A stretch of DNA of 64,000 bases from an uncultured Actinomycetes bacterium (GTDB lineage Bacteria; Actinomycetota; Actinomycetes; Streptosporangiales; Streptosporangiaceae), in the NCBI GenBank assembly GCA_963830385.1, contig CAWHMD010000013.1:20626-84625 (forward strand), written 5' to 3'. Under the pieces are notes generated by a model, which was not told the DNA's origin, did no database searches, and saw only the letters and a program-made list of their open reading frames with translations. Below, piece by piece: positions 1 through 43,409 of this stretch (positions are counted from its first letter, which is position 1; each line of letters opens with the position of its first letter). The position numbers and the translations under genes are program-made.

Positions 1-482
1 GCCAGCACGGCGTCGACCTGGCCGAACCGCATCTCGTCCTGCATCGGGAACAGGTAGGCGCCCGCGCAGAACAGCGCCGCGAACAGCACCGCCCGCCAGG
101 CGCCCGCCCGGCTCAGCAACGGCCGGAACGAGTACCAGATGATCACCGCGAACGGCCCGTAGACGAACACGACCCAGACCGCCTGCGCGGCCGGCCAGGA
201 CATCATGGCCAGCGGCGCGGCGAAGATCGCGGCCACCGGCGGGTAGGTGAACGGCAGGAGCTGCGGCGGCTGGGTGAGCACGCTGTACAGCGGCTGGCCC
301 TGCAGCACGGCCAGCCCGCCGGTCCGGTACACGTTCAGGTCGACCAGCCGCTGGTCGGGCGGGTTGGTCAGGTATCCGTGGATGATCGGGACGATCGCGG
401 CCAGCGCGGCCGCCCAGGCCAGCACCCCGAGCGTCACGCTCAGCCAGCGCGGCGGCTGGCGGACCCAGCCGGGCGGGGTCAT
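1..482 (-). CDS. GT87/DUF2029-type (PimE-like) membrane mannosyltransferase, 5' part only; gene continues beyond window start
   Basis: Absent from the ORF track because no stop lies in the window. Own reverse translation from ATG 482-480 gives MTPPGWVRQPPRWLSVTLGVLAWAAALAAIVPIIHGYLTNPPDQRLVDLNVYRTGGLAVLQGQPLYSVLTQPPQLLPFTYPPVAAIFAAPL... The DLNVYxxGG and PFTYPP motifs plus TM helices are typical of GT87. The ATG overlaps the upstream TGA (ATGA at 479-482). Confidence 0.6.
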   Translation of the reverse strand, partial: MTPPGWVRQPPRWLSVTLGVLAWAAALAAIVPIIHGYLTNPPDQRLVDLNVYRTGGLAVLQGQPLYSVLTQPPQLLPFTYPPVAAIFAAPLAMMSWPAAQAVWVVFVYGPFAVIIWYSFRPLLSRAGAWRAVLFAALFCAGAYLFPMQDEMRFGQVDAVL

Positions 483-6210: not shown

Positions 6211-6233
6211 CCTGCCCTTGCCCGCCTGGGAGG

Positions 6234-19954: not shown

Positions 19955-20443
19955 ATGACCGAGCTCACCCTCACCCTTATCCGGGTGGCCTTTCTCGCCG
20001 TGCTCTGGCTGTTTGTCATCGCGGCGATCGGAGTCGTCCGCACGGACCTCTCCGGCAATTCCAGTGGCCGGTCACGGCTGGCCCGGCGGCAGGCGACCGC
20101 GCCGCGGCCGATGCCCAGGCCCAACGGCAAGCCGCAGCGGTCCCGTCGCGGACAGTTGCATACGCTCGTCGTAACCGGCGGCGCGCTCAAGGGAACGACC
20201 ATTGATCTCAACGAGCAGCAAATTACGCTCGGCCGGTCAAATGACGCTACGCTCGTCCTCAACGACGACTACGCTTCAAGCCACCACGCCCGGATTTTCC
20301 CGCAGGACGGGCAGTGGATCGTTGAAGATCTCGGTTCAACCAACGGCACGTACCTGGATCGCCAGAAAGTGACGCGACCTACTCCGGTGCCGGCGGGCGT
20401 GCCGGTCCGTATCGGCAAGACCGTTCTGGAACTTCGCAGATGA
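19955..20443 (+). CDS. fhaB: FhaB/FipA (membrane FHA domain protein)
   Basis: N-terminal TM helix, then the FHA motif ITLGRSNDATLVLNDDYASSHHARI...GSTNGTYLD. Stop overlaps the pstP start. Confidence 0.85.
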   Translation: MTELTLTLIRVAFLAVLWLFVIAAIGVVRTDLSGNSSGRSRLARRQATAPRPMPRPNGKPQRSRRGQLHTLVVTGGALKGTTIDLNEQQITLGRSNDATLVLNDDYASSHHARIFPQDGQWIVEDLGSTNGTYLDRQKVTRPTPVPAGVPVRIGKTVLELRR

Positions 20444-24901: not shown

Positions 24902-26424
24902 ACGATCACCTGCTGGGCGGACGTTATCGGCTGAGCAGCCGGATAGCGGTCGGCGGCATGGGCGAAGTGTGGCGTGGCACCGACGAGCTGCTGGACCGCG
25001 CGGTGGCCGTCAAGCTGCTGTCGGCGGCGCACGCCACCGACGAGGCGTTCCGGGCCCGGTTCCGGGCCGAGGCCCGCTACGCGGCTTCGCTGTCTCACCC
25101 GAACATTGCCCAGGTCTTCGACTACGGCGAGATGTCGGGTCCCGACGAGGCCCCGCCCGGCCTGCCGTCCGGTGGCGCCTATCTGATCATGGAGCTGGTT
25201 CAGGGCGAGCCGCTGTCGGCGGTGATCGCGCGGCAGGAGCGGCTGTCGGCCGGCGACACCCTGCGCATCGTGAGCCAGGCGGCCGACGCGCTGGCGGCCG
25301 CGCACGAGGCCGGCATCGTCCACCGCGACATCAAGCCCGGGAACCTGCTGGTCACCAGCGACGGCACCACGAAAATCACCGACTTCGGCATCGCCCGCGC
25401 AATGTGGGCCGCGCAGGCGTCCCATCTGACCCAGACCGGCATGGTCATGGGTACCGCCAGCTACGTTTCCCCGGAGCAGGCCACCGGCGGGACGATCACG
25501 TCCGCCTCGGACATCTACTCGCTCGGGGTCGTCGCTTACGAGTGCCTGACCGGTGAACCGCCGTTCACGGCCGAGACCCCGGTCGCGATCGCGGTCGCGC
25601 ACATGCACCGGCCGGTACCGCCGCTGCCGGACGACGTGCCCGCGCCGGTGGCCGATCTGGTCACGAACATGCTGGCCAAGCGGCCGGAGGACCGGCCGCA
25701 GACGGCCCACTGGGTGGCGGACCGGGCCCGGCAGCTGCGCAGCTCGCTGCCCAGCACCCCGGACCTGCCGGCCGACATGGACGTGGCCGGGCTGACCGAG
25801 ACCGCGGCCGTCGGCGCCGCGGCCTTCGCGGCGGCCGGGCAGGCGACCGACCCGCGCGACGCCGGGGCCGCTCTGACCCGGAACGACATGGGCCGCCCGG
25901 GCGCGGCCACCCCGCCGCCCCGGCCCCCCGCCCACACCGCGGGCCACAGCCGAGGCGGCAGCGGCCGCCGCCGGCGCGCCCTGATGGCCGCGGGCGTGAG
26001 CGTGGTGGTGGCCGCCATCGGCGGCACGGTGGCGGCGTTCATGCTGGCCGGGAGGCCGATGAACCAGGTCGGCAACGTGAGCCCGGCCAGTTCCGCGACG
26101 CCCGGCACGAGCGCGAGCCCCACGACCACGACGATCAGCCCGACACCCACGCCGAGCCGGGAAAACGGCGTCGGCTACCGGAGTACGCCTACTCTAGGGG
26201 TGGGCGCCGGGGCGGGCGGCAGGATCAGCCCGTCCTCGGTGATCTCGCCGACGAAAGTTAAATCGACAAAAACTAAGAAGAGTTCTCCTCCACCGACGAC
26301 GAAGCCGCCGGTCACGCCGACGACTCAGCCGCCGACAACAACGCCGCCGACAACAACGCCGCCGACGCAGGGCAACGGCGGTGGCGGTAACGGCCACGGC
26401 CCCGGGCCAAATGGGAAGACCTAG
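24898..26424 (+). CDS. pknA: Ser/Thr protein kinase PknA with TM and Thr/Pro-rich extracellular tail
   Basis: GGMGEVWRG, VAVKLL, HRDIKPGNLL, DFGIAR, SPEQA. TM ALMAAGVSVVVAAIGGTVAAF. The tail includes a 15-bp tandem repeat (gccgccgacaacaac, 26328-26366) encoding PPTTT repeats. Confidence 0.85.
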   Translation: MNDHLLGGRYRLSSRIAVGGMGEVWRGTDELLDRAVAVKLLSAAHATDEAFRARFRAEARYAASLSHPNIAQVFDYGEMSGPDEAPPGLPSGGAYLIMELVQGEPLSAVIARQERLSAGDTLRIVSQAADALAAAHEAGIVHRDIKPGNLLVTSDGTTKITDFGIARAMWAAQASHLTQTGMVMGTASYVSPEQATGGTITSASDIYSLGVVAYECLTGEPPFTAETPVAIAVAHMHRPVPPLPDDVPAPVADLVTNMLAKRPEDRPQTAHWVADRARQLRSSLPSTPDLPADMDVAGLTETAAVGAAAFAAAGQATDPRDAGAALTRNDMGRPGAATPPPRPPAHTAGHSRGGSGRRRRALMAAGVSVVVAAIGGTVAAFMLAGRPMNQVGNVSPASSATPGTSASPTTTTISPTPTPSRENGVGYRSTPTLGVGAGAGGRISPSSVISPTKVKSTKTKKSSPPPTTKPPVTPTTQPPTTTPPTTTPPTQGNGGGGNGHGPGPNGKT

Positions 26425-26471
26425 CCCTGACCAGGGGCCAGTGATGAGACAACGCGGGATGGTTTGGCAAA

Positions 26472-28316
<1,845 letters not shown>

Positions 28317-28367
28317 CGATCACGAGAACGGCTAGCGGCCGCCGGAACGGCTGGCGGCCGCCGGCCG

Positions 28368-28526
28368 TCAGCCGTTGATGGCGCTGCCGTCGACCGGTAC
28401 GTGCAGCTGCAGCCAGGGGAAAACGCCGAACCACAGCGCCGCCGCGGCCAGCAGCAGGAGCAGCACCATCCAGGCCGTCCTGATCCCGGGACGTCCCGGG
28501 AGTGACCGCCAGAGCCATCCGTACAC
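28368..28526 (-). CDS. Possible 52-aa single-TM small protein
   Basis: Below the track cutoff. Own translation: VYGWLWRSLPGRPGIRTAWMVLLLLLAAAALWFGVFPWLQLHVPVDGSAING, preceded by GGAGACGGAC. Lies upstream of the sortase gene on the same strand. Confidence 0.35.
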   Translation of the reverse strand: MYGWLWRSLPGRPGIRTAWMVLLLLLAAAALWFGVFPWLQLHVPVDGSAING

Positions 28527-28564
28527 GTCCGTCTCCTAACTGTGCCTGCTGATAACTGTGTCTG

Positions 28565-29215
28565 CTAACCGCGGGCCGCGGCCGAGACCAGCTGACCGGT
28601 CACGATCACCCGGTGCGTGCCGGTCCAGGCCGGGTTGCAGGTGATCAGCGTGATCAGCCGCTGCGTGGGGCGCTGGCCGGGGTCCCCGGGGACCGGGTCG
28701 ACCACCGCCGTGTCGGTCGGCAGCACGGTGTGCTGGCCGGTCACCCGGTAGGTGTAGGTGTTGAGCTTGGTGTCGATGTAGACGAGGTCGCCGGCCTTCA
28801 GCGACGGCAGGCTCCAGAAGGGGTTGCCGGCCGTGACCCGGTGCCCGGCCACGGCGAAGTTGCCGAGCTGGCCCGGGAGCTGGGTGCCCGGCACGTGCCC
28901 GGGGCTCACGTTCAGCTGGGCCAGCGCGGTGCCCTGGATGATGGTGAACCGCCAGTGCGGGCCGAAGGCCGGGATCCGGATGTAGGCGAACGGCTGCCCG
29001 GTGACCAGCGCCAGCTGTTCGGGCCGGGCTGTCCGGGCCGCGTGGCCGCCACCGGCCGCGACGCTGGCCCACTGCTGGTTCAGCTCGTTGCTGAGCTGGT
29101 GCTGGGCGCTGCTGGCGTGCAGCGCGGTGCCCCACATCAGGTACGCGACGAAGAGCAGGACGACGGCGCCCAGGGTGACCAGAAGCTCACCCAGGCCGCG
29201 GATGACGGTACGCAC
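28565..29215 (-). CDS. Class E sortase
   Basis: N-terminal TM anchor, HRVTAGNPF (catalytic His region), TLITCNP (catalytic Cys), and a late Arg. Confidence 0.8.
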   Translation of the reverse strand: MRTVIRGLGELLVTLGAVVLLFVAYLMWGTALHASSAQHQLSNELNQQWASVAAGGGHAARTARPEQLALVTGQPFAYIRIPAFGPHWRFTIIQGTALAQLNVSPGHVPGTQLPGQLGNFAVAGHRVTAGNPFWSLPSLKAGDLVYIDTKLNTYTYRVTGQHTVLPTDTAVVDPVPGDPGQRPTQRLITLITCNPAWTGTHRVIVTGQLVSAAARG

Positions 29216-29374
29216 GATTGACCCATATCGCTGAGGTGGTTTTACCGGGATGATTACTGAACGTCATTGAATATTAGCGGCTCGTGACGACATGCGCCGC
29301 CGGAACATCCGGGCCCGGCTCTGAGACTCAGGTACTACGATGACGCCACAGCCAAACAGACCAGGAGAATCACG

Positions 29375-29623
29375 GTGCCGAAGTCCCGCGTCCGCAAGAA
29401 GCCGGTGTACACGCCGCCGCCACGGTCGGTGCGGCGTAAGGTCAGCCCGCCGTGGCTGGCCCCGGTCATGGTGGCGTGCCTGGTGGTCGGCCTGATCTGG
29501 ATCGCCTTGTACTACATCACCAACGGGCAGCTGGCCGGGATGTCGGTGCTGAGCTACTGGAACATGGTGATCGGGTTCGTGCTGATCATCGCCGGAGTGG
29601 TGCTCGCCACCCAGTGGCGTTAG
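29375..29623 (+). CDS. crgA: Cell division protein CrgA
   Basis: MPKSRVRKKPVYTPPP...SPPWLAPVMVACLVVGLIWIALYY plus a second TM. AGGAG-N7-GTG start. Conserved position. Confidence 0.9.
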   Translation: MPKSRVRKKPVYTPPPRSVRRKVSPPWLAPVMVACLVVGLIWIALYYITNGQLAGMSVLSYWNMVIGFVLIIAGVVLATQWR

Positions 29624-29659
29624 GGCGCGTCCGGGCGCGCCTGACCGGCCGGCGGCCGG

Positions 29660-30628
29660 TCAGAAGGCCGGCAGGCCGAGATGGACGCTCCACAGCGCGG
29701 TAGCGGCGATCAGCGCGGCCAGCACGCCGACGGTGGCCGCGGCCTGGATCAGGACGCGGTTGGCGCGGGGGGCGTAGGCGTAGGCGGCCGTGATCAGCGC
29801 CCCGACGACCAGGCCACCGATGTGGTCCTGCCAGGCGATGCCGTGCACCACGAAGCCGATGAACAGGTTGAGGGCGATCAGCCCGATGATGCCGCGGCTG
29901 TCCACCCGCAGCTTGCGGGACACCACGAACCAGGCGCCGAACAGGCCGAACACCGCGCCGGAGGCACCCAGCGCGGCCTGGTTGGGTGGGACCAGGTAAT
30001 AGAGGAAGACCCCGCCGCCGATCGCGCTGAGCAGGTAGATGGCCAGGAAGCGGAGGCGGCCGAACAGGTGCTCGAGCTGCGGCCCGACCACGATCAGCGC
30101 CCACATGTTGAACAGGATGTCGGCGAAACCGAAGGTGCCCCCCGACGGGGCCACGAACGCCGAGGTGAGCAGGCGGTACCACTGGCCCGCGCCCACCCCG
30201 ACCGCGTTGCCGCGGCCGTCGGTGGCGTACCCGACCATCTCCAGGTTGGTGGCGACGCTCGGGCGGACCAGCACGACCAGGTAGAGCAGGACGTTGAGGC
30301 CGACCAGCGACCAGGTGACGGCGGCCCCCGTCGTCACCCGGCCGCCGAACGCGGTCCTCGGCTGCCGCACCGGCGGGCCCGCCTCGGGGCTGCGGCCCCG
30401 GATGCAGTCGACACACTGCTGGCCGACCGGGGCGGACCGCAGGCAGTCCGGGCAGGCGGGACGCCCGCAGCGCGAGCAGGAAACGTACGTCTCCCGGCCC
30501 GGGTGCCGGAAACAGGTCGGCACGCCGGACGACGCGGCTGCGCCCTCGTCCGGCGGCCCAGCCGCGGACCCGGTGCCGGGTCCGATCTCAGGCCCTGTGT
30601 CCGGCGATCCGGAGGCGGGAGTGGTCAC
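29660..30628 (-). CDS. Rhomboid family intramembrane serine protease with N-terminal zinc ribbon
   Basis: CFRHPGRETYVSCSRCGRPACPDC...CVDC (Cys4-type ribbon). Rhomboid GASGAVFGLFGA and a late His in GFVVHGIAWQDHIGG. Confidence 0.85.
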   Translation of the reverse strand: MTTPASGSPDTGPEIGPGTGSAAGPPDEGAAASSGVPTCFRHPGRETYVSCSRCGRPACPDCLRSAPVGQQCVDCIRGRSPEAGPPVRQPRTAFGGRVTTGAAVTWSLVGLNVLLYLVVLVRPSVATNLEMVGYATDGRGNAVGVGAGQWYRLLTSAFVAPSGGTFGFADILFNMWALIVVGPQLEHLFGRLRFLAIYLLSAIGGGVFLYYLVPPNQAALGASGAVFGLFGAWFVVSRKLRVDSRGIIGLIALNLFIGFVVHGIAWQDHIGGLVVGALITAAYAYAPRANRVLIQAAATVGVLAALIAATALWSVHLGLPAF

Positions 30629-32140: not shown

Positions 32141-32185
32141 GACGCGGCGCACGAGCGCAATGCTCCTGCGCCGCGTCGCGTTTTT
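32141..32185 (+). terminator. Rho-independent terminator between convergent genes
   Basis: Stem gacgcggcgca (32141-32151) pairs with tgcgccgcgtc (32167-32177), followed by gcgTTTTT (T-run 32181-32185). Confidence 0.7.
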
Positions 32186-33572
32186 AGCTGACGGTAATGG
32201 ACAGGCTGGTGATCGCGCCGGTGTTGCCGAGCACCACCGGCTGGTCGGCGGTCACGTCGGTCAGCGTGACCGGTACCAGCGGGGTCAGCGAGTTGAGCAG
32301 CTGCAACAGCGTCGATTCGGCGTTGTCCGGGGTCAGCGTGAGCGGGACCCCGGCCAGCTTGCCGGTCAGCTTGGTCGCGTAGAGGACCACGCTGCCGGCA
32401 AACGAGGCGGACGGGGCGGCGGTCGTCAGCGTGCCATCGGCCCCGGTCACCGTGAGGTCGAGGCCGGACAGCTGCTGGGAGCTCATGGTGAACTTCATCA
32501 TCGTCAGCGTGCCGCCGCCGTTGACCGGCATGTTGACCTTGCCCTGGTAGGCGAGGCCGTCGAGGGTGGCCGAGCTGGCGGTGATGACCGCCGGGGAGCT
32601 GGAGACGACGAGGCCCTGCGTACCGGTGCCGGTCTTGTCGTTCTTGTTCTTCGCGCCGGGGCTGGCGCTGCCGATGCCGCCCACCACCGGCAGTCCGGTT
32701 GTGGGCAGGCCGGGAACGGTGGACGGCAGCACACCGCTGATCGGCAGCACGCCACCGAGGCCCCCGCCGCCCGACGACGACGGTGACGGTGAGGCGGTCG
32801 GCGTCGGGGACGGGGAGCTGCAGATGACGAACAGGATGCAGCCCTGCCCGGACTGAGCCTGTGCTGACTGCTGCGCCTGGGCCGGGTGGTCTTCGGCCGC
32901 GGAGGCGCGGGCGCCGCCGGCCAGCGTTCCGGCCGCCACCGCCAGCAGGGCGGCCACGGCCAGCAAGCGGGGGCCCTGCCAGCCACGCCCGTCGGGCCGC
33001 GGCTCGCCCAGACCCCAGGTCCTGAGCCCCGTCTCGGAGTCCGGTGACTCAGGCGGCTGAGGGGGCTGAGAGGGCTCCGGCTTCACAGCTGACTCGTGGT
33101 GCTCAGGTGACGGTTCAGGCGGGGACGGCCGGGCGGGCTCGGGCTCGGCCAGCGATCCCGGGGACCAGGCGAAGGCCAGTGAGCCGCCGACGATGCCCAG
33201 TAGCATTCCGATGAAAAAGCCACCCAGATTGGTGCCGATGAACGACAGCAGCGCGAGCAGCACCCCGGCGATCGCGTAGAACGTCTTGTGCACCGGGGTG
33301 AACCACAGCGCCAGCCCGCAGGCGATCAGCAGCGCGCCGATCAGGATGCCGAACACCCCGCCGATCCCGACGTAGATGACCAGCTTGATCTGGCCGCGGG
33401 CGAGGACTCCGGTCAGCGGGATGAGCAGCATCTCCAGCCCGCCGATGAGCAGCAGCAGGCCGCCCCAGAACGGCCGGGACCGCCGCCACTGCCGGAACTC
33501 GAACCGCCACGTCCCGGGCCGTGGCCCGGAACGCGGCCGCCGGACCGGACCCGCGTTCTCGCAAGCGGCCAT
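32184..33572 (-). CDS. Membrane protein: 4-TM N-terminal domain (resembles what I recall as DUF6114) + Pro-rich linker + TM + beta-rich extracytoplasmic domain
   Basis: WRRSRPFWGGLLLLIGGLEMLLIPL... has four helices. The linker PEPSPEHHES..PPQPPESP follows. Then RLLAVAALLAVAAGTLAGGARASA, and a Thr/Ser/Gly-rich C-terminal domain. ATG 33572 overlaps the upstream TGA (ATGA). Confidence 0.55.
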   Translation of the reverse strand: MAACENAGPVRRPRSGPRPGTWRFEFRQWRRSRPFWGGLLLLIGGLEMLLIPLTGVLARGQIKLVIYVGIGGVFGILIGALLIACGLALWFTPVHKTFYAIAGVLLALLSFIGTNLGGFFIGMLLGIVGGSLAFAWSPGSLAEPEPARPSPPEPSPEHHESAVKPEPSQPPQPPESPDSETGLRTWGLGEPRPDGRGWQGPRLLAVAALLAVAAGTLAGGARASAAEDHPAQAQQSAQAQSGQGCILFVICSSPSPTPTASPSPSSSGGGGLGGVLPISGVLPSTVPGLPTTGLPVVGGIGSASPGAKNKNDKTGTGTQGLVVSSSPAVITASSATLDGLAYQGKVNMPVNGGGTLTMMKFTMSSQQLSGLDLTVTGADGTLTTAAPSASFAGSVVLYATKLTGKLAGVPLTLTPDNAESTLLQLLNSLTPLVPVTLTDVTADQPVVLGNTGAITSLSITVS

Positions 33573-34183
33573 CACGGGCACGAGCCGCCATTGGTGCTGA
33601 CGCTCAGGTTGAGACCGGGGAGCGTGAACGTGCCGGCCGTGGTGAGCCAGGTGTGCTGCACCAGGTGGTTGATCATCACGGTGTCGGCCTGCTCGCCGAA
33701 GGTCCCGGGTGTGCCGGTGGTGCCGGGGACCTGGTTCAGCGTCCCGGCGTCCTGGCCGATGGCGATGTTGCTGAAGCTGGCGTCACCGCTCAGCGAGCTG
33801 GCGTCGACGATCAGGTTGCTGGCCGAGACCGGGTGGCCGGACGAGCGGCCGGCCCGGAGCAGCAGAGTGACCGAACCGACCTTGACCGCCTGGCACAGGC
33901 TGTCCAGGGTGGCGGACCTGATCGCGGATTCGGCCACCGGGATCTGCTTCTTGCCCGAGGTCACGGTGGAGCCGAACTGCTCGAAGCCGGTGCCCTTGAG
34001 CTGGGTGGCGGTGACCGTGTACTCCTGGCCGGACACCGAGATGTTGGCGCCGATGGCGCCTTCCGCGGTCAGCCCGATCAAGATCGCGGCCACCACGGCG
34101 GACGGCACCATGATGAACGCGAACCGCCTCCAGCGGACCCGGCCCATCGTGAACTGCGGGCCGGGCTCTGCTCCTATCGACAT
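33572..34183 (-). CDS. Single-TM exported beta-rich protein (resembles what I recall as DUF6230)
   Basis: MSIGAEPGPQFTMGRVRWRRFAFIMVPSAVVAAILIGL anchor, then ISVSGQEYTVTATQLKGTGFEQFGS... GGGAG RBS before ATG 34183. The track extension is rejected. Confidence 0.55.
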   Translation of the reverse strand: MSIGAEPGPQFTMGRVRWRRFAFIMVPSAVVAAILIGLTAEGAIGANISVSGQEYTVTATQLKGTGFEQFGSTVTSGKKQIPVAESAIRSATLDSLCQAVKVGSVTLLLRAGRSSGHPVSASNLIVDASSLSGDASFSNIAIGQDAGTLNQVPGTTGTPGTFGEQADTVMINHLVQHTWLTTAGTFTLPGLNLSVSTNGGSCP

Positions 34184-34383
34184 GGCGCTCCCAGGAAGTG
34201 ATTGACTTGTGCCGCTCCGCGTCGGTGCGTGGCGGGCTGCGTCCGGCACCTCGTTCAGAAGACCGGCGATACGGCGCAAAACGTCACTGTGACGTAGGCC
34301 ACCACGCGGTCGGAGCAGAAAGTTACTCCCGAGTAAGGAACGCGTCAAGCAAGGTTTGGCCCACGGAAAGTACACATCGGGCC

Positions 34384-35232
34384 TTAAATACGGACTTTTC
34401 GGTACGAGATTTTTTCTAAATCCTGGGGATCGGTGTCGCCGGCCGGTTGCGCGGGGCCGGACGGGATGTCGATGCCGTACTCGAGCACCACCCGGTCGGA
34501 CGGGACCACGATGTGGCGGCACACTTCCAGCACCTCGCCGCCGGAGATCAGCCGGCGCAGGATCGTGAACACCGGCACGCCCTGAGCCATCTGCAGGGTC
34601 TGGGTCTCGGGTTCGGTCGGCATCCGGGCACTGACCGATTCCTCCACCCGCGACACCGGGTGGCCGAGGTAGGCCAGCTGCGCGAGCGTGCCACCCGGCC
34701 AGGGCTCGCGGGCGGGGTCGGCCACCGGGGTATCGGCCACCAGCTCCAGCGGCAGGAAGTTGATGCTGATCTGCTCGGGCTCACCGCGCACGAAGAACAC
34801 GAAGTGCCGCCGCAGCAGCGGCGTCCCCGGCTCGGTCCCGAACAGCGCGGCCAGTTCCTCGTCGGCGGTGACCTCGGAGTACTGGGCGGTGAGCCGGTAG
34901 TCCCGCCAGCCGATGGCGTGGTCCTGGGTGAACGAGGTGCGTGGCTCGGCGTAGCGCTCCCGGGCCTGACGGGCGTCGACGACGTAGCGCTCCATCGCCC
35001 GCCGCCGTACCTGCGGGCGGGCCCGCACCACCGTGCCCCCGCCCCGGCGCGTCTCGACCAGGCCCTCGTGCCGCAGCAGCGACACCGCGTGCCGGATGAC
35101 GATTTCCGAGACACCGTAGAAGCGGCGCAGCTCTTCCATGGTGGGCAGGCGGCCGCCCGGCGGGTAGTGGCCCGACTGGATCTGCTGGCGCAGTTCATCG
35201 GCCACTTGAAGGTAGGCGGGACGTTCCTGCAC
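34384..35232 (-). CDS. GntR family (HutC/UTRA subfamily) transcriptional regulator
   Basis: GGAGG-N8-GTG at 35232. wHTH LPTMEELRRFYGVSEIVIRHAVSLLRHEGLVETRRGGGTVV, followed by a UTRA-like effector domain. Confidence 0.8.
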   Translation of the reverse strand: MQERPAYLQVADELRQQIQSGHYPPGGRLPTMEELRRFYGVSEIVIRHAVSLLRHEGLVETRRGGGTVVRARPQVRRRAMERYVVDARQARERYAEPRTSFTQDHAIGWRDYRLTAQYSEVTADEELAALFGTEPGTPLLRRHFVFFVRGEPEQISINFLPLELVADTPVADPAREPWPGGTLAQLAYLGHPVSRVEESVSARMPTEPETQTLQMAQGVPVFTILRRLISGGEVLEVCRHIVVPSDRVVLEYGIDIPSGPAQPAGDTDPQDLEKISYRKVRI

Positions 35233-35311
35233 GGTTGACACCTCCGGGCCCAGACGTCCCCCCCGGAACATTATGCGTTCAGCTTGACACGATCCGCATC
35301 TTCCCTCATTT

Positions 35312-35319
35312 TGTATACA
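35312..35319. promoter_or_regulatory. TGTATACA palindrome in AT-rich GntR upstream region (possible GntR operator)
   Basis: Read directly in cattttgtatacataagtt. HutC-type operators are short GT..AC-type palindromes. Weak evidence. Confidence 0.3.
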
Positions 35320-35467
35320 TAAGTTACGGAGCGGAGCCATCGATATCCATCGAGTTACCAAAGGGATCCTCGGGACTGATGGTGATAACGGCCGTCGCCC
35401 GCGTGGGCGGCCGGCCACGGTGCCGGAGGCAGCGATGCCCGGGGGAACGGTGCCGGAGGGAGCGGTC

Positions 35468-35692
35468 ATGGCAGGCGGGACCCAGGCGGCGGCCGAGCTG
35501 GAGGCGCAGTTCCCCGGCTGGCACGTCTGGCCGAGCAGCGCCGGCCGCTGGTGGGCGACCCGGACCGGGATCGTGCTCGACCGCCGGGCCCTCGGCGACG
35601 GCCGGGCCATGACGATCGACGCGGACGACACCGAGGCGCTGCGTGCTCAGCTGGCCCGGCAATCCCGCCTCGACCAGGCTGCGCGGCAGTAG
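35468..35692 (+). CDS. Small cytoplasmic protein, unknown function (FPGWHVW...GRWWATR motif)
   Basis: GGAGGGAG-N5-ATG at 35468. MAGGTQAAAELEAQFPGWHVWPSSAGRWWATRTG...TIDADDTEALRAQL. I recall this motif as recurrent in small actinobacterial proteins. Confidence 0.45.
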   Translation: MAGGTQAAAELEAQFPGWHVWPSSAGRWWATRTGIVLDRRALGDGRAMTIDADDTEALRAQLARQSRLDQAARQ

Positions 35693-37380: not shown

Positions 37381-37463
37381 CCGAATCGCGCCGACGCCCC
37401 GGCTGGCACACGAGTCACTCCAGCCGCCCGGTGCCCAGAGCCAAGTGTGCACTTCCCGATCCG

Positions 37464-37500
37464 GGAACACTTTTGGGCAGCATTTGTAAAAAAGTGTTCC
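37464..37500. promoter_or_regulatory. 11-bp perfect inverted repeat GGAACACTTTT-N15-AAAAGTGTTCC upstream of the RSH-like gene
   Basis: Read directly (37464-37474 and 37490-37500). AT-rich element in a 240-bp intergenic region. Operator or hairpin; no U-tract after it. Confidence 0.4.
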
Positions 37501-37622
37501 AGGCTTCGGAGGAAGCTCGAATCCGCAGCGGCGAACCACGCGGCTGAGGTATCCGTGCAATCTACGGATGACATTTCCTGCCGTACCTTGCCCCCGAACG
37601 TTTCCGGGAGCGCCCCACCCCG

Positions 37623-38471
37623 ATGGCAACCGACCGGCCCGCCCGTGCCGACGAGGCAACCGCCCCCGCCGACCGTGGCGTGGTTCGGCCGGACGCCCCG
37701 CCGGACGAACCGCCGGACGAACCGCGCAGCCGCGCCGAGCTCTACGCCGCCAGGCGCGGCACGGACACCCCGCCAGCCTCCAATGACACTCACACCACCG
37801 CCGACGGCGGCTGGGCCTGGAAAGGCCTCCGCCTCGATCCCCCCGCCAACCACGTCGCCGACCAGCAACTGGCCGCCCGCCGCGACGCCGAGGGCCGCCA
37901 CCCCGACGGCAGCTACGACGACCGGGGCCTGACCCCCGCCCTCCGCCGCGTCGAAGCCCAGCTCGAGCACGGCACGCTCGCCCCGGACACGGAGAAATTC
38001 GCCCTGAAATCCCCCGACCGCTTCAAAGAAAAGCTCGCCAAGATGATGGGGACAGAACCCGACCGCCCGGCCGCTGATCTGGCCGCCGACATTCACGACG
38101 GTATACGGTATACATGCATTCTTGATTTCGAGCATTACAGCTCCGAGGTTGACCAGGCACGGCGATTGCTCAGGATCGATGGCTACCAACTCATCGCCTT
38201 CAAGCCGAACTGGTCGGGCCACGAGTACAAGGGCATCAACAGCCAGTGGCGAGACCCCGCCAGTGGCGAGTATTTCGAGGTCCAGTTCCACACCCAGGAA
38301 AGCTGGGAAGCCAAGCAGCAAACCCACGACGCATACGAGAAAATCGAGTCTCCCCAGACCTCGCCGACCGATCGCACCCGTCTCCGTGAATATCAGCGAC
38401 ACATCTGCACACAGATTCCGATCCCAACCGCTGCCCTCGATTTCCATCCATTGAAAGAACGGGAAAAATAA
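37623..38471 (+). CDS. RelA/SpoT-homologue (small alarmone synthetase / toxSAS-like) nucleotidyltransferase with disordered N-terminus
   Basis: Motifs appear in canonical order. FALKSPDRFKEKLAKM (38001-38036; compare xKSxxSxxxKLxR). DIHDGIRYTC (38097-; compare DxxGxRxx). EYKGINSQW (38226-; compare YRSLH). FEVQFHTQESWEAKQQTHDAYEK (38274-38342; compare EIQIRTxxxxxWAxxxHxxxYK). Third-position G/C bias supports the plus strand over the antisense 470-aa ORF. Confidence 0.65.
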   Translation: MATDRPARADEATAPADRGVVRPDAPPDEPPDEPRSRAELYAARRGTDTPPASNDTHTTADGGWAWKGLRLDPPANHVADQQLAARRDAEGRHPDGSYDDRGLTPALRRVEAQLEHGTLAPDTEKFALKSPDRFKEKLAKMMGTEPDRPAADLAADIHDGIRYTCILDFEHYSSEVDQARRLLRIDGYQLIAFKPNWSGHEYKGINSQWRDPASGEYFEVQFHTQESWEAKQQTHDAYEKIESPQTSPTDRTRLREYQRHICTQIPIPTAALDFHPLKEREK

Positions 38472-38725
38472 GTGGCCGAGCAGATCATCTACTACGCAAT
38501 CGTCGGTACCGGCCGGACGGCGGCGGACCCTTCCGGGCTGGTTCGCCGCCGTACCACTGCTGAGGGAGCAGTGGACGAATCGTTCACGCGAGACGGCTCT
38601 TGGCAATTCACGAACGCGATCTATCAGGCGAACGCGGCGAGAATTTCGGGCCTGACCTGATTGAGATCAGCGCTGATGAGGCGGCCGCGCTGGTTGAGCG
38701 GTTCCGGCAGCGGTGGGCTGAGTAG
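38472..38725 (+). CDS. Small ORF immediately after the RSH-like gene, apparently split by a -1 frameshift near 38630-38642 (candidate antitoxin/immunity)
   Basis: GTG 38472 abuts TAA 38469-38471. Frame 0 gives MAEQIIYYAIVGTGRTAADPSGLVRRRTTAEGAVDESFTRDGSWQFTNAIYQANAA and then stops at 38658-38660. The overlapping frame continues GENFGPDLIEISADEAAALVERFRQRWAE to TAG 38723-38725, 2 nt before the ATPase ATG. Confidence 0.4.
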
Positions 38726-38727
38726 CG

Positions 38728-41556
38728 ATGGTCTCGCCCTGGCGGCGGTTGTGCGGGCTGGAGACATTCCAGATTGCGGAGGTTCCCCGGCCGGACGAGA
38801 GCGAGAACGGGGCTACCCGGGACCCGGGACGTGCACAGCGGGCGGCGGCCCTGGTGGCGGCCTATCACGCCGGGGAGGCGCTGGCGTTCGGGTGGCTGCG
38901 GGAACGGGCCGGCGACACGGTGCGGGTGCTGGCGGCGGGGGCGGCGCTGGTGGGCACGGCCGACGGGAACGAGGTGGTGCTGGCGATGCCGGGCGGGGCC
39001 CGGGGACGGGTACTGGGGCGTGGCACGGCGGCGACAACGATGGCCGGGCTGGCCTGCTGGCGGGCGATCGGCGGGATCAGCGACGGCTTAGTGGTGGCCG
39101 CGAACGGTGACCAGGCGGACCGGGAACGGGCCGCCCCCTCCCTGGAGGAGTGCCTGCTGCCGGCTTGGGGCGGGCCGTTCGGATGGCTCGCGCTGGCCGA
39201 ACCGGTGGCGCCCGCTGAACTACAGCGCCTGGCCGACGACGAGGCGCGACGTGAGCGGCTGGCTGCCCGGATGGCGGACCGCTTCCCCGAGCAGGACGTG
39301 CAGGCCCGGCGGCACCGGGACCGGCACGCCGAGTTGCGCCAGGGCCTGTCCACCGGCCTGTGGCGGGTGCATCTGCTGGCGGGCGGCGCCGATCCGGCCG
39401 CCGCGGCCCGGATCGCGGGGCTGGTGTGCGCCTCGGCCGACCTGCGAGGGCTGCCGTACTCGCTGACACCAGCAGTTACGAGGGCGAGCGGGCTGCGGGG
39501 GCTGCTCGATTCGGCGCCACCTCTGGCCCCGGCCGAGCCGGCCGAATCGGCGGATGACCTGGCCGAGCTGTACGAGGACGTGGCGCCGCGGACGCCGTTC
39601 CACGCCAGCACCACGCTGCTGGCGACGCTGGCCCGGACGCCGGACCGCGAGATCCCCGGCCTCCGGCTCACGCTCCGGCCGGACTTCGACGTGACCCCGG
39701 AGCAGGACCACCCAGCGGCCAGCATCCCGCTCGGTCAGGTGCTGGACCGGCAGCGGATGGCCGCGGGGCCGCTCCGGATCCCGCTGGACTCGCTGAACCG
39801 GCACGTTTTCGTGTGCGGGGCGACCGGCGGCGGCAAGTCGCAGACCGTGCGCGGCCTGCTCGAGGCGGCCAGCCGGGCCGGGGTGCCGTGGCTGGTGGTG
39901 GAGCCCGCCAAGGCCGAATACCGGCTGATGGCCGCCCGGCTGGCCGGGTCGGGCGCCGAGGTGGTGCGGATCCGGCCGGGCGAGGCCGACGCGGTGGCGG
40001 CCGGGCTCAACCCGCTCGAGCCCGCCACCGACGGCCACGGACGGCGGTTCCCGCTGCAGACCCACGCGGACCTGGTCCGGGCGCTGTTCCTGGCCGCCTT
40101 CCAGTCCGAGGAACCGTTCCCGCAGGTGCTCAGCGCCGCACTGTCCCGGGTGTACGAAGAGGCCGGGTGGGACCTGGCACTGGGCGAACCGCTCACGCCG
40201 GGCCTGCGCCCCGGCTATCCGGGGCTGGCCGACCTGCAGCGCACGGCCGAACAGGTGGTGCGGGGCATCGGCTACGGCCCGGAGCTGAGCGCCGACGTCC
40301 TCGGGTTCATCAAGGTGCGGCTGGCCAGCCTGCGGCTGGGCACCACCGGCCGGTTCCTGGACGGCGGGCACCCGATCGATTTTGGGCGGCTGCTGCGCCG
40401 CAACGTGGTGCTGGAGATCGAGGACGTCGGGGACGACCGCGACAAGGCCTTCCTGATGGGCACGGTGCTGTTGCGGCTGGTGGAACATTTGAGGCTGATG
40501 GGGCCAGTGAGAGCTGAGCGCGGCCTGCGTCACCTGACCGTGTTCGAGGAGGCCCACCGGCTGCTGCGGCGTCCCGAGCCAGGCGGTGGTGGTGCCGCCG
40601 CGCACGCGGTCGAGCTGTTCGCCGGGCTGCTGGCCGAGGTCCGCGCCTACGGCGAGGGGATCATCATCGCCGAGCAGATCCCCGGCCGCCTCGTCCAAGA
40701 CGTCATCAAGAACACAGCGGTGAAGATCGTGCACCGGCTGCCCGCGGCCGATGATCGCGAGGCGGTCGGCGCGACCATGAACCTCAGCCCGGCCCAGTCG
40801 CGCTTCCTGGTCACGCTGGTCCCGGGGGAGGCGGCGGTGGCGGCCGACGGGATGGACCACCCGCTGCTGGCCCGGATGCCGGACGGCACCGCCCGCGAGG
40901 CCGCCACCGCCCGCGGGGCCGTCGCCTCCGCGCCGAACGGCCCGGCACCAGCCGGGACCGCCAGCCCGGCCACGGTGTCCGCGGTCCGCAGCGTCACCTG
41001 CGGTACCGAATGCGTGGCCAGTCCGTGCACGCTGCGCGACATGCGGGCAGGCCAGCGCGCCGCCGAACGCTACCCGGCGGTCGCCCTGTGGACAGAACTG
41101 TCCGTGCTCGCGCACCTGACCGGCTGGCCGATGCCGATCCCGGGGGCCACCCTGCTCGGCCTGCTGCGCGAGTGGCCGGCCCGGCGGCGCGACTGTGCGC
41201 TGTCGCACGCGGTGGACGCCGCCGTCGCGGCCCGGACCCCGCTGATCTGCGCCCGGGTGAGCGGGCCGGCGCTGGCGGCGCACGTGGCGACGGCGGTGCG
41301 GGTACGGGTGACCCAGGGGATGTGGCTGTGCCCCGAGCGGGAGCCGCGGTGGCTGGCGCCCGGGTGGGAGGACGACGAGGGGGAGCCGGACACCGAGGCG
41401 TTGCGCCCGCTCGCGTTCGGGCTGGCCGATCCTTCGGCGGTGGAGCGGGCCGTCGGGACCAGCGTTACCGCCGCCGATTTCGGGTCACGGCTGGCCGGGT
41501 ACCTGGATCGGGAGTTCACCGACTGCCGGTGGCCGCTCCGCTATCTGAAGACGTGA
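38728..41556 (+). CDS. HerA/FtsK-superfamily P-loop ATPase (DUF87/AAA_10-like core) with unassigned N-terminal domain of about 350 aa and C-terminal domain of about 220 aa
   Basis: Walker A VFVCGATGGGKSQTV (39817-39840) followed by LVVEPAKAEY. Walker B LTVFEEAHRLL (40540-40557). VRAYGEGIIIAEQIPGRL...NTAVKIVHRLPAADD matches the HerA/VirB4 pattern. C-terminal Cys cluster CGTECVASPC. Confidence 0.75.
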   Translation: MVSPWRRLCGLETFQIAEVPRPDESENGATRDPGRAQRAAALVAAYHAGEALAFGWLRERAGDTVRVLAAGAALVGTADGNEVVLAMPGGARGRVLGRGTAATTMAGLACWRAIGGISDGLVVAANGDQADRERAAPSLEECLLPAWGGPFGWLALAEPVAPAELQRLADDEARRERLAARMADRFPEQDVQARRHRDRHAELRQGLSTGLWRVHLLAGGADPAAAARIAGLVCASADLRGLPYSLTPAVTRASGLRGLLDSAPPLAPAEPAESADDLAELYEDVAPRTPFHASTTLLATLARTPDREIPGLRLTLRPDFDVTPEQDHPAASIPLGQVLDRQRMAAGPLRIPLDSLNRHVFVCGATGGGKSQTVRGLLEAASRAGVPWLVVEPAKAEYRLMAARLAGSGAEVVRIRPGEADAVAAGLNPLEPATDGHGRRFPLQTHADLVRALFLAAFQSEEPFPQVLSAALSRVYEEAGWDLALGEPLTPGLRPGYPGLADLQRTAEQVVRGIGYGPELSADVLGFIKVRLASLRLGTTGRFLDGGHPIDFGRLLRRNVVLEIEDVGDDRDKAFLMGTVLLRLVEHLRLMGPVRAERGLRHLTVFEEAHRLLRRPEPGGGGAAAHAVELFAGLLAEVRAYGEGIIIAEQIPGRLVQDVIKNTAVKIVHRLPAADDREAVGATMNLSPAQSRFLVTLVPGEAAVAADGMDHPLLARMPDGTAREAATARGAVASAPNGPAPAGTASPATVSAVRSVTCGTECVASPCTLRDMRAGQRAAERYPAVALWTELSVLAHLTGWPMPIPGATLLGLLREWPARRRDCALSHAVDAAVAARTPLICARVSGPALAAHVATAVRVRVTQGMWLCPEREPRWLAPGWEDDEGEPDTEALRPLAFGLADPSAVERAVGTSVTAADFGSRLAGYLDREFTDCRWPLRYLKT

Positions 41557-41561
41557 GCGGC

Positions 41562-41864
41562 TCAGGCCGCGTTGGCCCGGCGCATCCGGCGACGCCGCTC
41601 AGACGAGCGCTGTTCCTCGTTCAGGCCGCCCCAGGTGCCGTACTTCTCCGGGCGGGACAGCGCGTAGTTCAGGCAGTCGATCCGCACCGGGCAGTCGGCA
41701 CAGATGGCCTTGGCCTTGCGCTCGCGGATGTCGCGCTCGGGCTGGCGCTCACCATCTGGCCCGAAGAAGATATTCAGATCCTCGTTGCGGCACGCGCCCT
41801 CGTCCTGCCAGCTCCAATTGGGCCGGGGAAGCGCAGCCGCCGAGGACCGCCGAACGTTGGACAT
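41562..41864 (-). CDS. WhiB-like (Wbl) Fe-S transcriptional regulator
   Basis: WQDEGACRNEDLNIFFGP...AKAICADCPVRIDCLNYAL...GTWGGLNEEQR has four Cys plus the GxWGG turn and a basic tail. Convergent with the ATPase gene (5-nt gap). Confidence 0.85.
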   Translation of the reverse strand: MSNVRRSSAAALPRPNWSWQDEGACRNEDLNIFFGPDGERQPERDIRERKAKAICADCPVRIDCLNYALSRPEKYGTWGGLNEEQRSSERRRRMRRANAA

Positions 41865-42011
41865 GGAAACGATCACCTCAACCGGTATTACCAAAGTTAC
41901 GTATGCGTCTAGGGCCCCGTTGGCGGGCGGAGGTCCGTTCTGGTGCGGTGCCCGCCGTACGCAAGTGCAACGCCAAGAATGCCCTGGACGTTCCCGTTCG
42001 CGTGCGGGAAA

Positions 42012-42025
42012 TTGCTTTTAAGCAA
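42012..42025. promoter_or_regulatory. TTGCTT-TT-AAGCAA palindrome in the wbl / methylase divergent intergenic region
   Basis: Read directly at 42012-42025. Function unknown. Confidence 0.25.
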
Positions 42026-42125
42026 GTAACAATGCCATCAAGCGGACGACTGTCCGCCGAATGGCGCAGCTTACTGACCGTGTCGGACCGCCACATCCTG
42101 GCTGACCGGCCGCTACGCTCTCCCC

Positions 42126-43409
42126 GTGACAGCCCGCATGATCAATACCCCGCAACGGGCGGCCACGCGACAGAACTCGCATCTTACGCACAGAGCGAAC
42201 ACGGACGCAGGCCGGCACGGCTGGCTCCGGCTGACGCCCGCGTACTCGGTCCGGCTGGTCCGCGAGCGGACCGGTCACCTGCCGCCCGGCGCGATCGTCA
42301 CCGACCCGTTCTCCGGCAGCGGGACCACGGTGCTGGCCGCCGCCGAGCACGGCGGCGTGGGCCAGGCGATCGACGTCAACCCGTTCCTGGTCTGGCTGGG
42401 CAACGCCAAGGCGGCCGCCTATCCGCCCGCGCTGCTGGACGAGGGCCAGGTCCTGGCCTCGTGGCTGGCCGAGCAGGCCGCCCACCACGCCCGCGACGCG
42501 GCCGGGCTGTGGGCCCCGAACCTGCACAACATCGACCGCTGGTGGTCACCGGGGTCGCTGGCCGGGCTGAAGGCCCTGCGCCACGCGCTGGACCAGGCGG
42601 AGCTGCCCGGCCCAGTCCACGACCTGTTCAGCATCGCGTTCTGCCGCACCGCGATCGGCGTGAGCAACGCGGCCTTCAACCACCAGAGCATGTCGTTCGC
42701 GGCCGGCCGTGACGCCGCGCTCGACGGTGAACCGTCCAGCGGCGACCACGTTTTCGCCCGGTTCAGCGCCGAAACGGCCGGGATCCTGGCCAGCGCCCGT
42801 ACCCGGCTGCCGGGGCGGGGCCGGGTGGTGCTGGGCGACGCCCGCGACCTCGGGACGGCCGGGCTGCCGGGCTGTGACCTGCTGCTCACCTCGCCGCCGT
42901 ACGTGAACCGGATGTCCTACATCCGTGAGCTGCGGCCGTACATGTACTGGCTGCGGTTCCTGGACCAGGCCTGCGACGCCGGCGAGCTGGACTGGACGGC
43001 GATCGGCGGCACCTGGGGCATCGCCACCTCGCGGCTGCACGACTGGGCGCCCGCCGATCTCCGGACGGCCGGCCCCACCGCTCCCATCGGCGACGAGCTG
43101 CGCGCGGTCACCGCGCTGATCGCCCGCGACGGCGGCAAGCACGGGCCGCTGCTGGCCACCTACGTGACCAAGTACTTCCACGACATGGCGGTCCACTTCA
43201 CCGCGGCGTTCGAGCACGTCAGGAGCGGCGGGACGGCGAGCTACATCATCGGCAACTCGACGTTCTACGGCCACGTCGTGCCGGCCGAGCGCTGGTACGC
43301 CCAGCTGCTGAGCGCGGCCGGCTTCGCCAGCGTGCAGACCACCGTCCTCCGCAAGCGCAACAGCAACCTCGCCCTGTACGAGTACGAGGTCACCGCGCTC
43401 CGTCCGTGA
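42126..43409 (+). CDS. Orphan DNA methyltransferase, amino-MTase (N6-A or N4-C), alpha-type motif order
   Basis: Motif I VTDPFSGSGTTVLAAAEHG near the N-terminus. Catalytic motif IV LLLTSPPYVNR lies about 190 aa later. No endonuclease gene recognised nearby. Confidence 0.8.
   Translation: MTARMINTPQRAATRQNSHLTHRANTDAGRHGWLRLTPAYSVRLVRERTGHLPPGAIVTDPFSGSGTTVLAAAEHGGVGQAIDVNPFLVWLGNAKAAAYPPALLDEGQVLASWLAEQAAHHARDAAGLWAPNLHNIDRWWSPGSLAGLKALRHALDQAELPGPVHDLFSIAFCRTAIGVSNAAFNHQSMSFAAGRDAALDGEPSSGDHVFARFSAETAGILASARTRLPGRGRVVLGDARDLGTAGLPGCDLLLTSPPYVNRMSYIRELRPYMYWLRFLDQACDAGELDWTAIGGTWGIATSRLHDWAPADLRTAGPTAPIGDELRAVTALIARDGGKHGPLLATYVTKYFHDMAVHFTAAFEHVRSGGTASYIIGNSTFYGHVVPAERWYAQLLSAAGFASVQTTVLRKRNSNLALYEYEVTALRP

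Follow-up and report, generated by a model that had tools for sequence, protein, structure and literature searches.

What is the role of three genes that lie in tight succession in the genome of an uncultured Streptosporangiaceae bacterium? The genes, found in a 64,000-nucleotide stretch of contig CAWHMD010000013.1 (hereafter the window), encode an RSH (RelA/SpoT homologue)-like protein, a small protein and a large P-loop ATPase (Table 1). The original prediction described them as an undescribed conflict or defence locus, possibly a module that senses a signal or modifies tRNA, with a HerA-type ATPase and with a nearby WhiB-like (Wbl) gene and an orphan DNA methyltransferase gene as companions. 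Our analysis supports a conflict locus and leads us to favour, with middling confidence, a different role: the three genes would form a toxin-immunity-ATPase unit, one variant of an ATPase-centred polymorphic toxin system, which exports its toxin. The locus is read as a polymorphic toxin system because a conserved ATPase is combined with interchangeable toxins that share an N-terminal element and are accompanied by cognate immunity genes. A defence module that senses a signal or modifies tRNA is a poorer fit, since members of the same ATPase family are found with a DddA-like deaminase and Imm1, and with a relative of a type VI secretion system (T6SS) lipase and an ankyrin protein.

The three genes and their conservation

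The gap between the RSH gene and the small open reading frame (ORF) is 0 nt and that between the small ORF and the ATPase gene is 2 nt. The three genes probably share one transcript and have coupled translation. The junctions first described were borne out, with the RSH stop codon TAA at 38469-71 abutting a GTG at 38472, a TAG at 38723-25 and the ATPase ATG at 38728. Two gene boundaries needed correction. The RSH gene had been thought to start at 37381, which is the first base past the stop codon of the upstream GT87/MptB-like gene; the start was moved to the ATG at 37623 (MATDR), in agreement with the homologues. Also, the stretch from GTG 38472 to TAG 38723 had been taken as one ORF and is in two different frames. 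The region between the upstream gene and the new start holds no ORF with coding-type G+C at third codon positions (GC3), and its GC is 63%, compared to about 73% in the flanking genes and ~72% in the window. Presumably, the operon promoter lies here. A scan of this region with the sigma-70 consensus found no site, a consensus that says little for actinobacterial promoters.

The packing of the three genes is beyond chance, and the prediction that they form a conserved unit held in other contigs. The small ORF is directly 3' of the RSH gene in 64/64 loci with enough sequence, and the ATPase gene follows directly downstream in 41 of the 47 RSH loci with enough sequence. The neighbourhood check for RSH-like and small genes beside ATPase orthologues is thus positive when conducted from the RSH side. 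From the ATPase side, a scan of one genome per GTDB species gave at least 468 relatives, which come from Streptosporangiaceae, Trebonia, Actinoallomurus, Actinomadura, Spirillospora, some Streptomyces, Amycolatopsis and one Pseudonocardiaceae metagenome-assembled genome (MAG). Neighbourhoods were counted at 80 of these loci. The RSH pair, meaning the RSH gene and the small ORF, is present at about 15 of the 80 loci fetched and is patchy across several clades on the ATPase tree. So the ATPase does not need the RSH pair, while the pair is nearly always beside the ATPase. Stand-alone pairs without the ATPase were found at L098, L113, L143 and L155. The order is permuted to ATPase-RSH-small in L118/119. 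In Actinoallomurus purpureus (L061) the pair is an isolated gain that supplants most of a PHP gene, which sister genomes keep upstream of the ATPase. The genes upstream of RSH-less ATPases vary (otsA, ALO oxidase, PHP, exonuclease, SpoIIE). From these, the ATPase was at one point taken for a stand-alone housekeeping gene with a hitch-hiking RSH pair, a view that was overturned by the downstream genes and the plasmid copies described below.

The first gene encodes an RSH-family enzyme of toxin type, as had been proposed. The synthetase motifs are real: DGIR (D159, R162), YKGIN (N206) and FEVQFHT (E219, Q221). When phmmer was run against the PDB, residues 127-271 matched 8vx3, listed as 'SaSAS', with an E value of 2.3e-22. 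This entry is SaEAS, the exported alarmone synthetase (EAS) of Streptomyces albidoflavus. Residues 73-271 align with the NCBIfam model for the C-terminal domain of XopAD/SKWP type III effectors (8e-22). In the alignment to SaEAS, D159, R162, N206, E219 and Q221 of the window protein correspond to D121, R124, N169, E182 and Q184, which are catalytic or ATP-binding residues according to the authors (Ahmad et al. 2025; PMC12691689). These five residues are invariant or nearly so in 15 homologues. The counterpart of SaEAS K154 is ambiguous, with a 2-residue indel at this place.

A match to Pfam RelA_SpoT (PF04607) had been expected and did not appear: no Pfam family matched the RSH protein at E <= 1. 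Neither PADLOC nor Pfam matched the RSH protein or the small ORF. This suggests that the RSH subclade is too divergent for the Pfam RelA_SpoT model, in line with the use of jackhmmer that was needed in PMC12691689. By sequence, the protein is placed in the SaEAS/Apk1/XopAD toxin clade of alarmone synthetases, as an enzyme made in the cytoplasm. The expected activity is pyrophosphate transfer from ATP, giving (p)ppApp and/or (p)ppGpp; pyrophosphorylation of tRNA cannot be inferred from sequence data. In E. coli, SaEAS is toxic when its signal peptide is removed (PMC12691689). A Kyte-Doolittle scan of the RSH protein found no hydrophobic segment and hence no Sec signal peptide. Its N-terminus consists of MATDR and then ~60 Ala/Pro/Asp-rich low-complexity residues that lead into the SYNTH domain, with no WXG/LXG match in Pfam.

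The RSH family has 707 detectable members, mostly ~280-300 aa long, from soil metagenomes and Streptosporangiaceae MAGs. One member of the window's subfamily, A0A3D5DQS5, is within the 1,369-sequence set of Ahmad et al. (PMC12691689). The catalytic half of the window gene has a GC of 56% and a GC3 of 0.70, compared to a GC3 of 0.91-0.96 in the neighbouring genes. Because the base composition of the pair is atypical, it seems that the cassette was acquired. At four loci (L009, L010, L011 and L043; RSH region at about 5880-6700), the RSH gene is multi-frame or truncated next to an intact ATPase gene, and the small ORF is still whole in L009 and L011. This points to repeated decay of the toxin.

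The small gene is adjacent to the RSH gene and co-oriented with it at all 64 homologous loci, as in toxSAS modules, though it is frameshifted in the window. DNA alignment with four homologous loci placed a 1-nt deletion near 38629, which splits an 84-codon gene into the two frames listed in Table 1, with products of 62 aa and 41 aa. The homologues have a single ORF of 83-86 codons. Restoring one base gives an 84-aa product with the invariant RGENFGP and ERFRQRW motifs, and the frame past the deletion keeps the invariant ERGENFGP...ERFRQRW motif. Since the downstream frame is still conserved, either the assembly is in error here or the frameshift is very recent, and then the immunity gene was inactivated next to an intact toxin gene. 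The family of the small ORF has 74 detectable members of 80-94 aa apart from a few outliers, none with a Pfam domain. The protein is strongly conserved, with a mean column identity of 67%, and its AlphaFold2 (AF2) model has a pLDDT of 91.5. A fold search against the PDB gave no significant match (best E 0.28). Its place next to the toxin gene and the strict co-occurrence suggest a specific neutraliser of the RSH toxin; this role is inferred from those two features only. The fold of the small protein (P0241) also matches three unnamed phage proteins in BFVD, A0A516KX65, A0A1B0XTJ1 and A0A5J6TPB6, the first of which is 92 aa long and gave the best E (7e-4) with a TM score of 0.74 to the small-protein model. 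Going by these model matches, phages may carry a related neutraliser of toxSAS enzymes.

The third gene belongs to the HerA/FtsK superfamily, as the original prediction had it. The Walker A (GATGGGKS, 364-371) and Walker B (VFEEAH, 605-610) motifs are invariant in 38 homologues, and the protein has a single P-loop domain and no transmembrane (TM) segment. Pfam matched HerA_C (2.9e-07) and DUF87 (3.5e-06), and the precomputed Pfam annotation adds PF27615 (DUF8350). PADLOC matched mad8 (1.2e-15) and several HerA models (to 3.6e-12). Among NCBIfam models, CedD reached 4e-14 and the VirB4-like CD1110 only 5e-4; all NCBIfam scores, those of HerA models included, were far below the cut-offs. A profile search of the PDB placed anti-phage and archaeal HerA first (3.7e-07). 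The narrower label of HerA-type is less secure than the superfamily, since by Foldseek the fold is at least as VirB4-like as HerA-like. Foldseek placed VirB4/TrwK first (1e-9) and HerA next, with TM scores to the target of 0.68-0.70 for 4ag5/4ag6 from a query model with a pLDDT of 67.8. DUF87 ATPases in the conjugation regions of actinobacterial plasmids are more distant homologues with 40% identity in the core, and on Rhodococcus plasmids they sit between genes for relaxase/MobC and type IV coupling proteins. Because of its HerA profiles, VirB4/TrwK fold and conjugation-region relatives, the predicted protein is called a VirB4/HerA-like ATPase here. In its C-terminal region, C758, C762, C767, C823, C868 and C933 are invariant, with a TCGxxCxxxPCTLRD motif. 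These DUF8350 cysteines may form a metal or Fe-S site in a region that is poorly modelled by AF2.

Toxins and a shared leader beside the ATPase family

At least seven further types of toxin occur with members of this ATPase family, each with an immunity-like gene of its own (examples in Table 1). Chromosomal toxin genes start 1-4 nt past the ATPase stop codon or overlap the ATPase gene, and each toxin family has its own family-specific small ORF immediately downstream. In Amycolatopsis, the ORF after the deaminase gene is Pfam Imm1 (3.5e-10). On the S. antimycoticus plasmid, the HD_4 protein is homologous to (p)ppGpp hydrolases (4e-18). This plasmid locus (L166:16686-19710) lies beside an annotated ABC-three-component conflict system, with DprA/ComF genes close by, a setting that resembles a conflict island and is unlike the core-chromosome setting of the window. 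The Nocardia copy of the ATPase gene is near an integrase gene. The Amycolatopsis DddA-like/Imm1 locus is a possible source of new deaminases.

Most of these unrelated toxins share a leader: M-x-(T/V/I)-D-R followed by an acidic, proline-rich stretch. The strict pattern ^M.[VTIL]D[RHQGMF] occurs in 8 of 561 control ORFs (1.4%), compared to at least six mutually unrelated effector families. Unrelated C-terminal toxin domains are therefore found behind a shared N-terminal element at equivalent loci, which is the arrangement of polymorphic toxins. Just past the ATPase stop codon in L031, L033, L037, L041 and L051 there are ORFs of 91-140 codons with an M-x-V/I-D-R leader and no toxin domain. These leader-only ORFs may be truncated or frameshifted Zeta effectors, or assembly artefacts of long-read MAGs.

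Other clades of the ATPase have candidate membrane partners. One clade is tied to a protein of 570-790 aa with two N-terminal TM helices and a Ser/Thr/Gly-rich tail, which gave no Pfam match above threshold. The NCBIfam 'serine-rich protein' NF033849 (1163 aa) weakly matches both this two-TM partner and the ATPase, so that a fused form may exist elsewhere. In Actinomadura and Spirillospora, a DUF1361 protein directly follows the ATPase (L069:9745-10407, L066, L067, L070, L075, L081). We take DUF1361 to be an integral membrane protein, Pfam giving no function for it, and it may be a further component of the apparatus. At these Actinomadura/Spirillospora loci, no leader-bearing toxin was seen downstream.

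Table 1. Features of the window locus and of loci carrying homologues of its ATPase
Feature	Location	Strand	Details
RSH-like toxin gene	37623..38471	+	282 aa; ATG 37623, TAA 38469-71
Small cognate ORF, putative immunity protein/antitoxin	38472..38725	+	split here: 38472-38660 and 38600-38725
VirB4/HerA-like P-loop ATPase gene	38728..41556	+	942 aa
ATPase, N-terminal alpha/beta domain	residues about 1-330		
ATPase, core	residues about 335-720		
ATPase, C-terminal Cys-rich DUF8350 region	residues ~757-942; window 41000-41556		
Intergenic region 5' of toxin gene	37381..37622	.	no coding-type ORF
WhiB-family gene	41562-41894	-	Pfam Whib 5.7e-23
DNA methyltransferase gene	42126-43409	+	PADLOC MTase_II 5.5e-23
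ADP-ribosyltransferase (ART) gene	S. clavuligerus pSCL4		overlaps ATPase gene; ADPrib_exo_Tox, Pfam 2e-24; then 134-aa ORF
664-aa protein with RelA_SpoT-like C-terminus	S. antimycoticus plasmid		4e-4; then 94-aa ORF and HD_4 protein
725-aa protein, Tle-like, C-terminus matching T6SS lipase effector	Nocardia plasmid		7ubz, 1.5e-10; then ankyrin protein
Zeta-toxin kinase	chromosomal loci (five)		1e-15 to 7e-19; after ATPase
Calpain-like protease	Streptomyces, chromosomal		Peptidase_C2; after ATPase
DddA-like dsDNA deaminase	L078:9874-11675, Amycolatopsis sp. NPDC051128		Pfam 1.3e-11; directly after ATPase
Leader starts	toxin N-termini		MATDR (window RSH; L044), MSTDR (ART), MSVDR/MNVDR/MPIDR (Zeta), MAIDR (L064), MSIDF (lipase), MGIDG (L042)
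Two-TM partner	L065:4719-6911	-	
Two-TM partner	L074:3182-5251	-	
Two-TM partner	L056:1841-4222	-	
Two-TM partner	L165:6924-8720		
Two-TM partner	L166:6229-7941		
Two-TM partner	L167:5494-7413		

Export, defence or chance adjacency

In a polymorphic toxin system of this kind, the ATPase would recognise the short N-terminal leader (M-x-T/V/I-D-R and the acidic, proline-rich disordered stretch). ATP hydrolysis would then serve to hand the unfolded toxin to a route that crosses the envelope. The delivered toxin would intoxicate neighbouring cells without the immunity protein, which would shield the producer and its kin. Toxin export is a likelier role than intracellular defence because the toxins and immunities are of interbacterial types, the closest kin of the ATPase outside its own family are conjugation VirB4s and membrane partners occur in other clades. 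A further step, which we propose more tentatively, is that the VirB4-derived DUF8350 ATPase could be an effector translocator of Gram-positive bacteria derived from a type IV secretion system (T4SS), with a polymorphic arsenal that it reaches via the leader motif. The cargo would then comprise alarmone synthetases, Zeta kinases, dsDNA deaminases, ADP-ribosyltransferases, proteases and lipases, and in some clades the translocator would be joined by the two-TM partner and the presumably membrane-embedded DUF1361 protein.

Several points weigh against export. The support for it is comparative. T4SS substrates usually have their signal at the C-terminus, whereas the one proposed here is N-terminal. 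A search of the 64-kb window for the two-TM partner (P730) was negative, so no channel is visible there; the window's clade has no adjacent membrane partner and its ATPase no TM segment. The AF2 model of the ATPase is of moderate confidence (pLDDT 67.8, pTM 0.42), and the sequence profiles favour HerA, the scaffold of intracellular defence complexes. Many ATPase homologues are without a recognisable adjacent effector, and the toxin gene is upstream of the ATPase gene in the window's clade while most other effectors are downstream. In this clade, the locus is vertically inherited core chromosome, which is atypical of toxin loci with fast turnover. The frameshift of the immunity gene, if real, is hard to reconcile with an active, expressed toxin.

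The main rival is intracellular defence, which we consider a possible but clearly less probable role. Here, a HerA-like hexamer would hold or sense a toxin-antitoxin-type effector and free or activate it upon phage infection, leading to abortive infection, as modelled on Sir2-HerA, DUF4297-HerA or PARIS with interchangeable effectors. The matches of the ATPase to PADLOC HerA models and mad8 agree with this, as does the first place of anti-phage HerA in the PDB profile search. The toxSAS, Zeta, ART and deaminase domains are also effectors of abortive infection, the S. antimycoticus and Nocardia copies lie beside an ABC-three-component system and near an integrase, respectively, and the ATPase of the window's clade lacks both TM segment and membrane partner. 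However, every effector here has an immunity gene, including Imm1 and ankyrin, which are typical of secreted polymorphic toxins, and we know of no separate immunity genes in HerA defence systems. The T6SS-type lipase and the long disordered leaders suit translocated toxins better, and other clades have the two-TM partner and the DUF1361 protein. No Sir2, DUF4297 or NurA partner was present among the scanned neighbours, and the setting in the window's clade is core chromosome rather than a defence island.

The pair could also be a usual toxSAS toxin-antitoxin of two genes. It would have landed upstream of a housekeeping ATPase gene to which it is unrelated, been passed on with that gene by descent and borrowed its transcription without any functional coupling. 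The RSH pair is missing at most ATPase homologues, it is also found without the ATPase, it is patchily lost or decayed at four loci, and the ATPase gene is in conserved core synteny. We nevertheless regard this as unlikely, since the adjacency at 41 of 47 loci persists down to ~48% toxin identity and across different flanks, and was re-created in permuted order (L118) and by independent gain (L061). Chance lodging is inadequate to explain why at least seven other toxin-immunity pairs with a common N-terminal leader abut homologues of the same ATPase. Least probable is a role in normal physiology, in which the enzyme would make (p)ppGpp or (p)ppApp as a signal in development or stress, under the control of the small protein and the ATPase and tied to WhiB and cell-division genes. 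The nearby crgA, rhomboid, pknA/B cluster and WhiB genes, the vertical inheritance in the clade and the 67% mean column identity of the small protein, unusually high for an immunity protein, would suit such a role. Against it, the closest characterised RSH relatives are toxins or exported enzymes instead of housekeeping small alarmone synthetases, WhiB is absent from the other clades that carry the trio, the base composition of the pair is foreign, and a signalling role is impossible for the parallel Zeta, ART, deaminase and lipase cassettes.

Known systems and chromosomal setting

The polymorphic toxin reading was compared with several described systems. Polymorphic toxin systems (Zhang et al. 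2012; PMC3482391) likewise join a common N-terminal part to toxin domains that vary at the C-terminus (RelA/SpoT-like, deaminase, ART, Zeta, peptidase, lipase), have an immunity gene right after the toxin gene, with Imm1 and ankyrin types among them, and are linked to a trafficking ATPase. In contrast to those, the trafficking element here is a short motif with a disordered stretch, not a folded WXG/LXG, PAAR or TPS domain, and the ATPase is single-domain and VirB4/HerA-like, not YueA/EccC, ClpV or a phage-derived apparatus. The EAS enzymes, which include SaEAS, Apk1/Tas1 and AaEAS (Ahmad et al., mBio 2025; PMC12691689), have a homologous SYNTH domain with the same catalytic residues and are also toxin-type RSH proteins. 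That study describes signal-peptide-less SaEAS homologues of Streptomyces that clustered with 'TrwB, TrwK, TrwI'-like genes. Its homologues in clusters A and B are likewise without a signal peptide and occur in conserved clusters, one with TrwB/TrwK/TrwI-like genes and another with a small immunity ORF downstream. The window RSH protein differs from these enzymes in having MATDR and a disordered leader instead of a Sec signal peptide, LXG, Rhs/PAAR, MuF or SKWP-repeat domain, and in its coupling to just one soluble VirB4/HerA-like ATPase; the window has no further genes of a T4SS or type VII secretion system (T7SS).

Like the toxSAS modules FaRel, PhRel and CapRel, the locus has a small RSH toxin and a small, putative cognate neutraliser, in a cassette that behaves as a mobile two-gene unit. 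Unlike them, it has an RSH protein of the Apk1/SaEAS/XopAD-like subclade, a partner without a known fold and a third, tightly coupled ATPase gene. HerA defence systems (Sir2-HerA, DUF4297-HerA; archaeal HerA-NurA) share the ATPase superfamily, by weak but consistent HMM and fold matches, and an interchangeable adjacent effector. The differences are that other partners with immunity genes are found here, that the 942-aa ATPase has distinct N-terminal and Cys-rich DUF8350 domains, and that its VirB4 matches are at least as good as its HerA matches. A Sir2/DUF4297-HerA-type system was rejected when Pfam and PADLOC scans found no Sir2, DUF4297 or NurA among the neighbours. MADS, an 8-gene operon (mad1-mad8), was also rejected: only mad8 (1.2e-15) and a weak, generic mad2 methyltransferase match (6.5e-07) were found, and the remaining neighbours were GT87, WhiB, a short-chain dehydrogenase/reductase (SDR) and Fpg, with no other mad genes. 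With the T4SS VirB4/TrwK ATPases and the Xanthomonas X-Tfe toxins, the locus shares its best structural match, the pairing of toxin and immunity genes with a secretion-type ATPase, and more distant ATPase homologues in conjugative T4SS regions of actinobacterial plasmids. X-Tfe toxins have a C-terminal XVIPCD signal, in contrast to the putative N-terminal signal here, and the host here is Gram-positive. Among the window genes scanned there was no VirD4 coupling protein, VirB6, VirB8 or relaxase. A T7SS toxin (LXG/WXG with a multi-domain EccC/YueA ATPase) did not apply, as there is no WXG/LXG domain and the ATPase is single-domain.

RSH toxins, toxSAS modules, polymorphic toxins and HerA/VirB4 ATPases are all already known. 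The claim that their combination is undescribed stands in part: PADLOC has no model for the trio, and text searches found no description of a toxSAS-HerA system. It is partly pre-empted by PMC12691689, in which the TrwB/TrwK/TrwI-linked SaEAS homologues are probably the same kind of system. The subfamily of A0A3D5DQS5 and its partners are undiscussed in that study. Text searches found no description of the ATPase family as a hub for multiple toxins, of the shared leader or of the small partner of this subfamily, and searches on DUF8350 and on VirB4/DUF87 with polymorphic toxins found nothing beyond Ahmad et al. 2025. A paper on S8-PTS proved unrelated.

If the ATPase deploys these toxins, soil actinobacteria would traffic polymorphic toxins in a new way. 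A 2025 review describes dedicated effector-translocating T4SSs in Gram-positive bacteria as a long-standing open question (PMC12857230), for which the ATPase would be a concrete candidate. An ATPase homologue with a leader-bearing gene and a small ORF would also be a handle for mining toxin and immunity families, including DddA-like deaminases, which are of interest for base editing. Finally, it would add to recent work showing that bacteria use alarmone synthesis as a weapon, apart from its role in the stringent response.

The trio is ~8 kb from crgA/rhomboid and the pknB cluster. These belong to a conserved actinobacterial cell-division region (20440-30628), in which pstP, rodA, pbpA, pknA and pknB occur alongside crgA and genes for a sortase and a rhomboid protein. 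The products of the region are a PP2C phosphatase, RodA/FtsW, a penicillin-binding protein, two Ser/Thr kinases (the second with PASTA), a sortase, CrgA and a rhomboid protein. The closest relatives keep the order crgA, rhomboid, PPIase, DUF6114, DUF6230, GntR and GT87, followed by RSH, small ORF, ATPase, WhiB, methyltransferase, SDR, Fpg and permease. Because this whole gene order is kept, the trio is in the core chromosome and not in an island in the window's clade. Upstream, at 32184-35631 (- strand), the closest relatives also keep two membrane proteins, DUF6114 and DUF6230, along with a GntR/UTRA regulator, and no link to the trio was found beyond local synteny.

The arrangement of the last two genes agreed with the original prediction, the Wbl gene being convergent with the operon end across a 5-nt gap and the methyltransferase gene divergent from it. 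Their inclusion in the locus did not hold up: both accompany the trio in the window's clade only and are absent from the other clades that carry the RSH gene, small ORF and ATPase gene. The two genes are treated as bystanders and should not be counted among the components of a defence system. There is no nuclease gene near these two genes. Throughout the window's clade, the WhiB gene and the orphan N6/N4 DNA methyltransferase gene are syntenic at 70-94% identity, which suggests a vertically inherited, regulatory or orphan methylase rather than a mobile restriction-modification system.

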